Positions 1,021-5,525 of a stretch of DNA of 64,000 bases are shown one piece after another. The notes beneath the pieces were generated by a model, which did no database searches, had not been told where the DNA came from, and was given only the letters and a program-made list of their open reading frames with translations. Every line of letters starts with the position of its first letter. Position 1 is the first letter of the stretch. The stretch comes from Promethearchaeota archaeon (lineage in GTDB: Archaea; Asgardarchaeota; Lokiarchaeia; Sigyniarchaeales; SOKP01): assembly GCA_019058295.1 (NCBI GenBank), contig JAHPZI010000021.1, positions 128,001 to 192,000 of the forward strand, written 5' to 3'. The translations under genes and the position numbers were made by a program.

Positions 1021-1473
1021 TCATAATAGTGAGCCTAAACTTTCAAAGAGCTCCTCTTTAGAAGTTTCTTCTTTGAAATAGTTTTTAATCTCATCAATAA
1101 TTTTATTTGTTTCAAATTGAATTAATCCAAAATTAATCTTTTTAGAAAATATTACTTGAATAAGTACGTTTGAAAATACTCTTGTTATTAATATTGAAAA
1201 ATCTGCATCAAGGCTTTTGTCCATACCGGCATCAATCTTTATTTGTTCGAGCATTTTATTTTTATTGATTATTTCTATACCTCTTTCTGCCATTGATAAA
1301 ATACTTGCTGAGATCGCAGCAAAATTAATATTCATTTCCTCATATTGGTCGTTTTGTTCACTATTTGAAGCTATTACTAAACCATCTTCAGTAATTAAAG
1401 TTGAACTTTTAACGCCAGTATTTAAAATAAAATCATCTAAAAGATTTATTAATTTAATTCTAATATCTGACAT
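1021..1473 (-). CDS. Roadblock/LC7 (MglB-like) protein
   Basis: GVKSSTLITEDGLVIAS...FAAISASILSMAE pattern; paralogous to 3473-3925. Confidence 0.85.
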   Translation of the reverse strand: MSDIRIKLINLLDDFILNTGVKSSTLITEDGLVIASNSEQNDQYEEMNINFAAISASILSMAERGIEIINKNKMLEQIKIDAGMDKSLDADFSILITRVFSNVLIQVIFSKKINFGLIQFETNKIIDEIKNYFKEETSKEELFESLGSLL

Positions 1474-1556: not shown

Positions 1557-1922
1557 TTAACCTAAAACCATTTTGATTTTATCCAGAGCAGCATTTATCT
1601 CGAAATCTATTAGTCCTATTTTGGCATCTGAGGGAGCTAATGCAATTAGAGCTGCTTGCGCTAATTGATGGACAACAATAAGATTATCCTTACCACTAAT
1701 TACATGTGAACTCACTTTACCTGATTTTAAAGTATCCGCAACCCTTGACCCAACTGATGTTAAAGCTGCAGTCATGGCAGCTATTCCACGCTCATCCATA
1801 TCTTTATGTAAAGCGCTTGCCATCATCTGACCTTTCAAAGATATAACTGCACTGTTTGATACTTCGGAATTCTTTTCTAAATCATATAATATGTCTTTAA
1901 TTTTTTCTGATCGAGCACTCAT
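1557..1922 (-). CDS. Roadblock/LC7 (MglB-like) protein
   Basis: SAVISLKGQMMAS...IAAMTAALTSVG...AKIGLI; GAGGT SD upstream. Confidence 0.9.
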   Translation of the reverse strand: MSARSEKIKDILYDLEKNSEVSNSAVISLKGQMMASALHKDMDERGIAAMTAALTSVGSRVADTLKSGKVSSHVISGKDNLIVVHQLAQAALIALAPSDAKIGLIDFEINAALDKIKMVLG

Positions 1923-1940: not shown

Positions 1941-2066
1941 TTATTTTTTATCATAAAATTCACAAGTGTCCTTTTCCTTCGCTGTAACAAAAATTTTCTT
2001 TTTCTCACACCAGACTAATCCATCGGAATTTTCATCTCCTGCAAATTTACAATCACTTTTTGCCAC
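1941..2066 (-). CDS. 41-aa Cys-rich microprotein (MAKSDCKFAGDENSDGLVWCEKKKIFVTAKEKDTCEFYDKK); not in ORF track
   Basis: GTG start at 2066 after a GGGTGA SD that overlaps the upstream stop; TAA at 1943-1941. Fills the operon gap and aligns with the C-terminus of 4062-5525. Confidence 0.8.
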   Translation of the reverse strand: MAKSDCKFAGDENSDGLVWCEKKKIFVTAKEKDTCEFYDKK

Positions 2067-2072
2067 TTTAAC

Positions 2073-2549
2073 TCACCCCTCTAAATTTATCGTGAAAATT
2101 GTTGTATTTTCTTCTGGTTTCCACTCAGCTTTTTCAACTGATCCTGTTTTTCCGGTATTTTTTTCAATAGCACCATATAAAATAGCTACCATTGGACAGG
2201 GAGGAATATAATTGATATCATTGCCTCTAAGAACTTTTGTAATTGGTGCTAAAACACATTCTCCAAGATCAAGAACGACTTTACTATCACTAACCTCAAT
2301 AATGTTTGCTCTTTGACAAAAGCCAACTTCTTTAATCTTTTTAGTAAAATCTTCTGTAATAGATTTAACATCTGATCCTCCGACCTCTAATCCGACATCC
2401 TTCATTAAACCTTTAACACCATCTGAATGAAACATCTCTGCCATTTCATTTTGAATCAGTGGAATATTTAATCCCATTTTTAATAAGGAATTCACTGCTA
2501 CACCAAAACTAATGTTTGTAAATGTCAATAAATCTTTAAATTCTGTCAT
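2073..2549 (-). CDS. V4R/Bet3-like fold ligand- or metal-binding protein
   Basis: 158 aa; GFC...LGECVL...PPCPM Cys pattern and terminal beta strands (TTIFTINL) resemble V4R/MetOD1-type domains. Confidence 0.55.
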   Translation of the reverse strand: MTEFKDLLTFTNISFGVAVNSLLKMGLNIPLIQNEMAEMFHSDGVKGLMKDVGLEVGGSDVKSITEDFTKKIKEVGFCQRANIIEVSDSKVVLDLGECVLAPITKVLRGNDINYIPPCPMVAILYGAIEKNTGKTGSVEKAEWKPEENTTIFTINLEG

Positions 2550-2829: not shown

Positions 2830-3471
2830 ATTAGTGAAAAAAGTATAAAAATTTTCGTGACTGGATTTTTTAATTCGGGAAAAAGTACTTTAGTACATAC
2901 GATTGACGACAAAGCTATCCATGTAGAAAAGGAATTAAGCAAAACATTTAATGAAGAAAAAACAACAACTACTACTGGTTTTGATTTGGGAAGACTAGTT
3001 TGGGCTCGTCCAAACTTAAATAACGAAACTGAAGGGGTAATTATGAGTAAGACAGAGTATTTAAGAGATAAAGATGAATATTTGGGATGGCATATAAAAT
3101 ATGTCGAGTTAAAAGGCAGTCCTGGCCAAATGCAATTTTCTACTGTCCGTAAAATTCTAGCAAAGGGAAGCGACGGTGTGATCTTTTTAATTGATGGATG
3201 TGATTTAGCGAATATTGGCAATGCGTTAGTCGTTTTGGAAGAAATCAAAGCAGTTCTAGGTTCAAATATACCAATGCGAATAATTGCTAATAAATCTGAT
3301 AGGGATGACTTTCATGGATGTGAGGTTATTACAAGTATGATTGGTGAAACAGTATATGTGGGTTCTGGTAAATATAATGTAGGTATAAAAGATGCAATTA
3401 TTGAAGTACTTAAGACAATTTTATATGGTTTAGACCAAAATAAAATTTCAAAAGAGAGTGTGGTAGCTTAA
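2830..3471 (+). CDS. MglA/CvnD-like small GTPase
   Basis: G1 GFFNSGKST, G2 TTTGFDLG, G3 GSPGQ, G4 NKSD. Proposed ATT start at 2830 (SEKSIKIFVTG) after a GAGGAG SD; track start 2857 truncates strand beta1. Confidence 0.85.
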   Translation: MSEKSIKIFVTGFFNSGKSTLVHTIDDKAIHVEKELSKTFNEEKTTTTTGFDLGRLVWARPNLNNETEGVIMSKTEYLRDKDEYLGWHIKYVELKGSPGQMQFSTVRKILAKGSDGVIFLIDGCDLANIGNALVVLEEIKAVLGSNIPMRIIANKSDRDDFHGCEVITSMIGETVYVGSGKYNVGIKDAIIEVLKTILYGLDQNKISKESVVA

Positions 3472-3472
3472 A

Positions 3473-3925
3473 ATGGCTAACTTAAAAGAAAAACAAATTG
3501 TACAGATTCTGAAAGATTTTAGAGGAAGGACAAACATTCTATGTTCTATTTTACTCAATGAAGATGGTTTGATTATTGCATTAGATCAAGCTCAAATGAA
3601 CGAAGATGATGAGTATCATTTATCTTTCAGTGCAATTTGCTCTGGTATTGTTGCATTAGCAGAAAATGGTATTGAAACGATAAAAGAGGAAAATAATGTT
3701 AAAAAAATATCAATTCAAGCGGGAGAACAATTAGATAAGGAGGGATTTACAATTATTCTTCAATCGGTCACAAAAAATATTAAACTATCGATAATGTTTC
3801 CAACGTACTTGAATTTCGGTGTAATTCTTTTTGAATTAAATCAAACAATTCAAAGATTATCGGAGTATTTTTCAATTCCTGAACAAATCAAAAATCTCGA
3901 TGGTGTCAGTACATTAATGCAATAA
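3473..3925 (+). CDS. Roadblock/LC7 (MglB-like) protein
   Basis: ILCSILLNEDGLIIA...FSAICSGIVALAE; translationally coupled to the GTPase (TAA-A-ATG). Confidence 0.85.
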   Translation: MANLKEKQIVQILKDFRGRTNILCSILLNEDGLIIALDQAQMNEDDEYHLSFSAICSGIVALAENGIETIKEENNVKKISIQAGEQLDKEGFTIILQSVTKNIKLSIMFPTYLNFGVILFELNQTIQRLSEYFSIPEQIKNLDGVSTLMQ

Positions 3926-4061: not shown

Positions 4062-5525
4062 GTGGTAATACGTCAATGTATCGTTAATAATATTAATGAA
4101 AAGAATATAAATAAATTTCTGATAGAGAGATTAAACCATAATAATCCTTTAGTACGAAGAAATGCTGCCTTAGAAATAGAAAATCAAGGTATCTTAATCG
4201 CAATTACTCCATTATTAAGTACATATTTTCCTGGATCTTCATATATAATTCCTCGTATAATCGGAAAAATAGGGAAGAAAAATATAAAACTCTTACTTAA
4301 AATTGCAATGAATAATTATAATGGAACGAGAATGCGGCAATATGCTATTGAAGGATTAGGAAAAATTGGAGATAAAAAGATACTAAATAATTTATACTTA
4401 CTTTTAAAGAGTGATGATGTTTATATTAGGAAAAGTTGTATATTAGCACTGGGAGACATTAGGGATAAAAATTCTGCTGGAAAGTTATTATATTTATTAG
4501 ATATAGAAGTTGATTGGATTAAACCCTATATTATTTGGTCACTTGGAAAATTAGGTGATTTAAATTGTTTAAATAAACTAATTGAAATGTTATCCATAAA
4601 AAATTTAAATTTCATCACTAAGAAAATAATTATTAAAGCATTAGGATGGATTGGAGATAAAAGAGCGGTAAAAAAGCTCATTGAACTTTTAAATGAAAAA
4701 AATTCAGGTTTAGAGGATTATATTCTATTTGCTTTGGAAAACATAGGTGATACAAAAGTATTACCAATTTTAATAAAAAATTACTTGAAACCTATATGGT
4801 TTTTAAAGGAACACAATAAATGCATAATAAATAAGTTATCTCCTCAATGGAGAAATTTATTAAACAATTATGATTTAAAAATTTACAATAGAGAAGACTT
4901 ACCTCCACATTTTTATACAAACATCAATAATGAGGATGATTGGTTTTATGGTTGTTTAAACAAATCTCATTACATCTTAAATTCTCAGAAAAAAATCATT
5001 GGTTGTTTAAATTTAATTTATTTAATAAATTATGAGAAAGTTATTCTTTTTTATATGGATACAATTGAAATAAAAGAAGAATTTCGCCGTCAAAAGATAG
5101 GAACAGAATTAGTTAATCAAGTCATTAATGAAATTAAAAAGAAATTCGAGAGATTTAATATCTTTTTGTTAGTTGCAAAATGTAAGCAATATAAATTAAA
5201 ATTTTTTAGTACATTAGGATTTATACCTATAAAATTAAGAAAAACAGGGGTAGGTGCACATTGTATCATGAGTTATCCATTTACAGAAGATTCAGAAAGA
5301 AATTGTAAAAGATTGTTTGAATATTTTTGTTGGAGAGAAGAAAAAAAGGAGATTATCTCATCAGATTGTAAATATGCGTATAATCCCAATCCAACTGGTC
5401 TATATTGGTGTAAAAAAAAAATGATTTATGTTACAGGGTTAGAAAAAAAAAAATGTCCATTCTATATTAAAGAAAAGGAAATAATTAGTGAGAAGAAATT
5501 TTTTGATTTAAAAGAGTTTTTCTGA
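4062..5525 (+). CDS. HEAT-repeat / GNAT acetyltransferase / Cys-rich domain fusion
   Basis: Repeated ALGxIGDxxA HEAT (PBS-lyase type) units; GNAT motif A IEIKEEFRRQKIGTEL and KFFSTLGF; C-terminal DCKY...WC...CPFY. Confidence 0.75.
   Translation: MVIRQCIVNNINEKNINKFLIERLNHNNPLVRRNAALEIENQGILIAITPLLSTYFPGSSYIIPRIIGKIGKKNIKLLLKIAMNNYNGTRMRQYAIEGLGKIGDKKILNNLYLLLKSDDVYIRKSCILALGDIRDKNSAGKLLYLLDIEVDWIKPYIIWSLGKLGDLNCLNKLIEMLSIKNLNFITKKIIIKALGWIGDKRAVKKLIELLNEKNSGLEDYILFALENIGDTKVLPILIKNYLKPIWFLKEHNKCIINKLSPQWRNLLNNYDLKIYNREDLPPHFYTNINNEDDWFYGCLNKSHYILNSQKKIIGCLNLIYLINYEKVILFYMDTIEIKEEFRRQKIGTELVNQVINEIKKKFERFNIFLLVAKCKQYKLKFFSTLGFIPIKLRKTGVGAHCIMSYPFTEDSERNCKRLFEYFCWREEKKEIISSDCKYAYNPNPTGLYWCKKKMIYVTGLEKKKCPFYIKEKEIISEKKFFDLKEFF

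Follow-up and report, generated by a model that had tools for sequence, protein, structure and literature searches.

The small subunits of glycyl-radical enzymes (GREs) are HiPIP-like [4Fe-4S] proteins, and the role of their clusters is unknown (2026 review, PMC13450708). The gamma subunit of 4-hydroxyphenylacetate decarboxylase (HPAD-gamma or HpdC; chain B of 2y8n and 2yaj; Pfam PF18524 HPIP_like and PF18671 4HPAD_g_N) has a C-terminal HiPIP-like domain. It carries one cluster that is held by four cysteines and one that is held by three cysteines and a histidine (PMC13450708). When the clusters of benzylsuccinate synthase (BSS) are chelated or removed, its small subunits are released (PMC13450708). 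The beta and gamma subunits of BSS and of (1-methylalkyl)succinate synthase have four-cysteine sites, are 51-69 residues long in the matched entries, and have a GRE as their partner. The HiPIPs themselves (PF01355) are periplasmic electron carriers of bacteria, with 55-85 residues and four cysteines.

Asgard archaea possess many small GTPases, Roadblock and longin proteins, and TRAPP-like proteins, and how these cooperate and which signals they receive is largely unknown. Tran et al. (2024) described Asgard GTPase, Roadblock, and TRAPPC3 proteins, including a four-cysteine zinc site in Thor-TRAPPC3 (PMC10933270). In MK-D1, the GTPase genes are generally situated outside operons with Roadblock, longin, or TRAPPC3 genes (PMC10933270). 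Here, we describe a cassette that contains the same protein classes as those of Tran et al. but arranges them in one conserved operon together with a microgene. It was found in a stretch of 64,000 nucleotides from a Promethearchaeota archaeon, which in its entirety is referred to as the window.

Results

The microgene is located at 1941..2066 on the minus strand. Its 41 codons, the length given in the initial annotation, begin with GTG and are followed by a TAA, and its product contains three cysteines (C6, C20, and C35). An SD-like sequence, GAGGGGTGA, is present just 5' of the microgene and spans the stop codon of the preceding gene, which encodes a V4R-like protein of 158 residues (2073-2549) and ends 6 nt before the microgene starts. 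At the other end, 18 nt separate the microgene from the ATG of a 121-residue Roadblock gene (1557-1922), and the AGAGGT within this spacer is the Roadblock gene's own site. Comparison of the microgene with its two closest orthologues by the Nei-Gojobori method (36 aligned codons) gave a dN/dS of 0.05-0.09, and across 13 microgenes the same method gave a mean pS of 0.70 against a mean pN of 0.25. These values indicate that selection acts on the protein.

Given that the microgene is very short and starts with GTG, its reading frame and its likeness to the tail of a GNAT protein in the same window could be thought to be due to chance or to a remnant. The strong purifying selection argues against this, as do the pairwise E value of 6e-15 between the free and the fused copies, the intact frames that are kept across several families and classes, and the conservation of both position and ribosome-binding site. 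A chance origin is excluded, and the notion that the microgene is not real is effectively refuted. Judging from its sequence, 1941-2066(-) encodes a genuine, translated protein of 41 residues that founds a small unnamed family.

In the window, the microgene continues the frame of the V4R-like gene after a TGA and two codons (2064-2078, minus strand). Read-through of this stop codon to give a V4R-micro fusion was considered and rejected, because other loci do not preserve the shared frame. There, the two genes are separated by 4, 5, 6, or 21 nt or overlap by 4 nt.

An alignment of 42 sequences shows that C6, C20, and C35 are invariant and that G16, W19, K22, and V27 are nearly so. Neither the free nor the fused copy matched a Pfam (hmmscan, E<=1) or NCBIfam family, in agreement with its earlier description as an unnamed module. 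Profile searches of the PDB sequences with alignments of 21 and 42 sequences returned only chance matches to GH18 (E 0.6-2.9). In the ESM Atlas, a feature search found only unnamed clusters, the best of which is probably the micro family itself, and a shape search found unnamed small proteins only. A search of the literature found no mention of the microprotein. The protein had also been called unannotated, which is correct for its function and family, but the protein itself has been called publicly as a "hypothetical protein." The exact 41-residue sequence is already present in an NCBI/Logan-derived protein collection, and the 90% cluster to which it belongs comprises 31 entries, labeled "hypothetical protein" and derived from MAGs of Promethearchaeota, Thorarchaeota, and Odinarchaeota.

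In six-frame searches, the micro domain turned up in 9 of the 60 close relatives that were scanned and, across the phylum, in 40 of 400 genomes. Its spread is patchy: of the 10 genomes searched from the window's genus, just 2 carry it, one of them being the window's own. When an HMM built from 21 copies was scored against 1.84 billion representative proteins, only 31 clusters were found at E<=1e-3; their free forms have 39-57 residues, and their GNAT-fused forms have 156-475. A word-indexed search of 5.8 billion proteins returned three called relatives of 41-64 residues, among them a "hypothetical protein" that NCBI lists for a Thorarchaeota MAG. As far as searched, the family is limited to Asgard archaea. 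One 431-residue "HlyD family secretion protein" (P0057) shares a 90% cluster with a 57-residue micro relative (P0007); the probable cause is either an artefact of the clustering or a mis-called frame.

The window's genome contains exactly two copies of the domain. Besides the free microprotein, there is a copy at the C terminus of a 487-residue protein with HEAT repeats and a GNAT acetyltransferase domain (4062..5525, plus strand; Pfam HEAT_2 1.3e-21, HEAT_PBS 3.2e-16, Acetyltransf_1 2.1e-07). Residues 431-470 of this protein (5352..5471, plus strand) align to the free microprotein by BLASTP with 21 of 40 positions identical and no gaps (E 6e-15), and a conserved short tail follows. This recurrence had been recognized in the initial annotation, and the span that it assigned to the alignment (5361-5465) falls within the BLASTP match. 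The C-x13-C-x14-C spacing that it gave and the SD, GL.WC, KK..[FY]VT, and FY motifs are likewise present.

The fused copies of other genomes align and retain all three cysteines, the HEAT-GNAT orthologues occupy the same position in other genomes, and some family members consist of a GNAT-micro protein that lacks the HEAT repeats. In the scan of 400 genomes of the phylum, no family other than that of the window has the fused form, which lies on the opposite strand from the free gene at a distance of ~3 kb. A tree of 50 domain sequences places the 13 fused copies on one side of a branch with a support of 98/89, which indicates that the GNAT fusion arose once from the free gene. The fusion is a later event of single origin that is found only in the window's family. 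Consequently, the free protein works without the GNAT domain in most lineages. The GNAT domain is also the sole fusion partner; among the 31 clusters with E<=1e-3, there is no fusion of the micro domain to a V4R or Roadblock domain.

The neighborhood of the free microgene was mapped by BLASTP to the window's proteins in 38 loci outside the window, comprising 12 larger loci and 26 loci from the phylum scan. The microgene directly follows the V4R-like gene in all 38 loci and directly precedes the gene for the 121-residue Roadblock protein in 37 of them. The spacers within the cassette are a few nucleotides long, and some gene pairs overlap by 4 nt. The 121-residue protein (1557..1922, minus strand) is a Roadblock/LC7 protein (Pfam Robl_LC7 1.2e-09), and the next gene of this left arm encodes a Roadblock-like protein of 150 residues (1021..1473, minus strand; Robl_LC7 1e-04, just under the cut-off), whose place is conserved in the window's family. 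The divergent right arm contains a small GTPase (2857..3471, plus strand) with weak Pfam and NCBIfam small-GTPase matches, followed by another Roadblock-like protein of 150 residues (3473..3925, plus strand; Robl_LC7 2.2e-05) in a conserved order. In the window's family, this arm runs divergently, with the GTPase gene first, then the Roadblock gene, and then the GNAT-micro gene. In other families, the GTPase gene is collinear and situated directly after the 121-residue Roadblock gene, and another Roadblock gene follows it.

As called from the GTG at 2857, the GTPase frame begins within the strand of the P-loop (product M-TGFFNSGKS), and the orthologues are 10-18 residues longer. Upstream of this GTG there is no in-frame ATG, GTG, or TTG. 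An in-frame ATT at 2830, 8 nt past a GAGGAG, would add ISEKSIKIF to the protein, and from the sequence this non-canonical codon is likely the true start.

Some loci deviate from the common arrangement. At seven loci from genomes of family f31 (L057, L059, L058, L064, L050, L041, and L060), a second microgene of 38-50 residues, ~50-60% identical, precedes the V4R-like gene by ~300 nt, which leaves the latter flanked by two paralogous microgenes. At L039:421-2109 (G020:C47), a 525-residue protein ends in the V4R-like domain, and the microgene after it is cut to 36 residues, with its first half alone recognizable; the cassette seems to be decaying or to have been rearranged here. A truncated V4R-like fragment at G027:C39:37301-37534 (profile positions 1-83, E 1.4e-28) belongs to a genome that has no micro match and may be the remnant of a lost cassette.

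Sequence searches of Pfam, NCBIfam, and the PDB gave no match to the 158-residue neighbor (2073..2549, minus strand) that precedes the microgene. The AF2 model of this protein has a pLDDT of 93.6. Its top Foldseek matches are TRAPPC3 (6aq3; E 8e-6), H-NOX, the V4R sensor domain of PoxR, and Thor-TRAPPC3 (7yh3), and it also matches Bet3 and the V4R sensor domain of MopR; the probability is 1.00 for 6aq3, Bet3, PoxR, and 7yh3. The label V4R-like is right at the level of the predicted fold, which is the two-layer alpha/beta arrangement of TRAPPC3 (Bet3) and V4R proteins.

The occurrence of this protein parallels that of the microprotein. Of 61 genomes, 9 have strong V4R-like matches (profile, E<=1e-60); these are the 9 that also have strong micro matches, and the copy numbers of the two agree in each of them (1, 2, 3, 2, 1, 1, 1, 1, and 2). 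Residue C78 of the V4R-like protein is invariant, and C98 and C118 are lost in one clade. The latter concerns three loci of families f5 and f7 (L032, L033, and L034), where GEC is changed to GDS and PPCP to PASP or PPTP, so that two of the three conserved cysteines are absent, and the adjacent microprotein has a CxxC. Covariation between the loss of Cys98 and Cys118 and the gain of the CxxC was considered as evidence and set aside, because one clade with three loci represents a single event. At most, the change hints at a metal site that is shared or has shifted.

The V4R-like protein and the 121-residue Roadblock protein were co-folded with the microprotein as the scored partner and a 4Fe-4S cluster along, in three runs and three controls. 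The mark used for this method is reached by 58 of 80 solved complexes and by 2 of 110 mismatched pairs. The median ipSAE was 0.57 (runs 0.24, 0.63, and 0.57), which falls in the range up to 0.60 that contains just 7 of the 80 solved complexes and both passing mismatches, a band that is more often wrong than right; the best of the three controls reached 0.00. The runs share at least 64% of their contacts, and the pLDDT of the partner is at least 80. In the control in which the V4R-like chain was swapped while the microprotein and the Roadblock protein were kept, the ipSAE was 0.00, and therefore the modeled interface needs the V4R-like chain. The initial annotation had named the V4R and Roadblock proteins as candidates for co-folding with the microprotein, and the outcome was graded as weak support for docking. 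Taken together, the co-fold and the 1:1 genomic pairing make the V4R-like protein the most likely partner of the microprotein.

The fold of the microprotein was predicted with AF2 from the 21-sequence alignment. The best model has a pLDDT of 81.9 and consists of three short strands and a helical turn; it alone is highly confident, and the other four models range from 75.5 down to 59.0. Foldseek found no match to this model in the PDB at E<=0.001, and the match ranked second was 2y8n chain B, with a TM of 0.67 over all 41 columns. In an exhaustive structure comparison, the nine best matches were all cubane-cluster domains of the HiPIP type, although their scores are modest. The best is the small subunit of 4-hydroxyphenylacetate decarboxylase; BSS beta, the small subunit of methylalkylsuccinate synthase, and five HiPIPs are among the others. 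The HiPIP-type fold of the cluster-binding core is present in the predicted model.

The cysteines can be compared directly with the cluster ligands of HPAD-gamma. In the PDB sequence and 24 natural homologues, the C-terminal domain of HPAD-gamma has an invariant C45-x2-C48-x13-C62-x17-C80, and the N-terminal domain has invariant H3, C6, C19, and C36, as well as C14. The spacing in the micro family is (C)-x1-2-C-x13-C-x12-14-C, where the first cysteine is optional. This additional cysteine, 2-3 residues before the first invariant one, occurs in a minority of members and is missing from both window copies and most of the family, which have Ser-Asp-Cys at this place. An hhalign alignment of the micro family with the 24 HpdC sequences extends over 41 columns and sets C6, C20, and C35 on C48, C62, and C80 and the optional cysteine on C45, but it is weak (P 0.006, probability 6%), and its score was reached by 4 of 200 column-shuffled nulls. 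Against the single N-terminal domain of HPAD-gamma, the probability was 2%. No sequence similarity was detected between the microprotein and the small subunits of BSS or (1-methylalkyl)succinate synthase. PF18671 and PF18524 were searched over the whole genome and did not match the reading frame of the microgene, and for this reason the microprotein is not filed as a member of those families.

Eight proteins with a glycyl-radical domain, 816-1094 residues long, are encoded elsewhere in the genome, on contigs C2, C3, C7, C21 (87482-87793), C26, and C28. A 43-residue frame at C2:104393-104446, ~15-20 kb from two of the GRE genes, has a very weak match to HPIP_like (E 1.0).

Discussion

The explanation that we favor, with a probability of roughly one half, is that the microprotein is a HiPIP-like accessory subunit that holds a cluster and docks on the V4R/TRAPPC3-like protein of a Roadblock/GTPase cassette. 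The micro domain would be a minimal HiPIP-like module in which the three cysteines, with the optional fourth, most likely hold a cubane Fe-S cluster. The free protein would then serve as an accessory subunit that depends on its cluster and, as the small subunits of GREs do, docks on a larger partner. This partner would be the product of the upstream gene in the order V4R-like, micro, Roadblock, small GTPase, Roadblock. Where the domain is fused to GNAT, it would bring the acetyltransferase to the same site or place it under the same cluster-dependent control. The initial annotation had suggested that the module joins the two arms physically and that the free copy may compete with or recruit the acetyltransferase; these suggestions are conjectural, and the association that the genomes conserve is with the adjacent V4R/TRAPPC3-like gene. 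In the forms with the SDC motif, the fourth ligand may be Ser4, Asp5, a water molecule, or a residue that the partner supplies, or else the site may bind a single metal ion. We infer the identity of the metal, the fourth ligand, the binding partner, and any role in sensing redox state or oxygen from these predictions and comparisons.

By analogy, the microprotein most likely works like the subunits of the HPAD-gamma type. It differs from HpdC in having one domain rather than two, in a last spacer of 12-14 rather than 17 residues, in the missing fourth cysteine of the window copies, and in the lack of a significant match to the Pfam models. Its partner and context are also different (a V4R/TRAPPC3-like protein with Roadblocks and a GTPase, not a GRE), and it occurs in Asgard archaea, not in clostridia. 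Compared with the HiPIPs, it is cytoplasmic by context, half the size, encoded in a signaling operon, and has three invariant cysteines. HiPIP-like small domains typically have four cluster ligands spaced C-x2-C-x13-16-C-x13-17-C, and the window copies lack the first of these cysteines. Since one of the HPAD-gamma clusters is held by three cysteines and a histidine, three cysteines alone do not exclude membership among HiPIP-like proteins.

The initial annotation had left the choice between a metal and an Fe-S site, and the predicted fold and the HPAD-gamma cysteine register support the Fe-S reading best. A possible but less probable alternative is that three cysteines, together with Asp5, Ser4, or the optional cysteine, form a site for a single zinc or other metal ion, and that the protein is a pure adaptor with no redox role. 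Most members, including both window copies, have three cysteines after a conserved Ser-Asp, which a mononuclear Cys3 site for zinc or iron would fit equally well, and the scores of the HiPIP fold matches are modest. The fold class of the neighboring V4R/TRAPPC3 protein also uses a cysteine-based zinc site in Thor-TRAPPC3 (PMC10933270). Against a zinc site, the window copies have no CxxC knuckle pairs and no conserved histidine, and their cysteines are single, 13 and 14 residues apart. All nine of the best structure matches are cubane domains of the HiPIP type rather than zinc fingers or ribbons, the spacing and register of the cysteines match the cluster ligands of HPAD-gamma, and the conserved aromatic residues around the cysteines (W19, Y26, and the Phe or Tyr at positions 8 and 37-38) may form a cage like that of a HiPIP cluster. 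It is improbable that the cysteines bind no metal at all and instead serve for a disulfide, thiol chemistry, or acylation on a metal-free adaptor or regulator. Thiol chemistry does occur in the fold class of the neighbor, as the Bet3/TRAPPC3 structure that is its top Foldseek match (6aq3) carries a covalent palmitate. However, three invariant cysteines in a domain of 35 residues match cluster-binding domains in spacing and predicted fold. Stable cytoplasmic disulfides are unlikely in strict anaerobes.

The structural matches also raise the question whether the microprotein is a stray HPAD-gamma- or BSS-beta-like small subunit of one of the genome's own GREs and acts outside GTPase signaling. 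The best matches are indeed GRE small subunits, and the genome does encode eight glycyl-radical domain proteins, but none of their genes is in the window, and the nearest is situated ~40 kb before it on the same contig. All 38 mapped loci are V4R-like/Roadblock/GTPase cassettes, the microgene co-occurs 1:1 with the V4R-like gene, its sole fusion partner is GNAT, and searches with the Pfam models for HPAD-gamma domains miss it. We consider this origin very improbable.

A more far-reaching version of the cluster-holding accessory subunit is that the Fe-S microprotein would be an obligate subunit of a TRAPPC3-like/Roadblock platform, where the state of the cluster, set by redox conditions, oxygen, or iron supply, would gate GTPase signaling and, in one lineage, the acetyltransferase as well. 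We regard this as rather unlikely.

The microprotein represents a new, narrowly distributed family of small proteins with a predicted HiPIP-like fold that is fixed in a TRAPPC3-like/Roadblock/GTPase cassette. With 41 residues and no family model, it has been missed by surveys of gene families. The cassette itself provides a defined set of proteins (the V4R/TRAPPC3-like protein, the cysteine microprotein, Roadblocks, and a GTPase) that several Asgard families have inherited as a unit. If the microprotein were a plain zinc adaptor, it would be a modest new family of small proteins. If it carries an Fe-S cluster and attaches to the TRAPPC3-like protein, one archaeal GTPase module would have a sensory input that can be tested, and the HiPIP-like accessory subunits known from GREs, which are poorly understood, would have a second biological setting. 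Should the cluster also gate signaling, this would mean a metal-cluster input into archaeal forerunners of the eukaryotic GTPase-regulator complexes.
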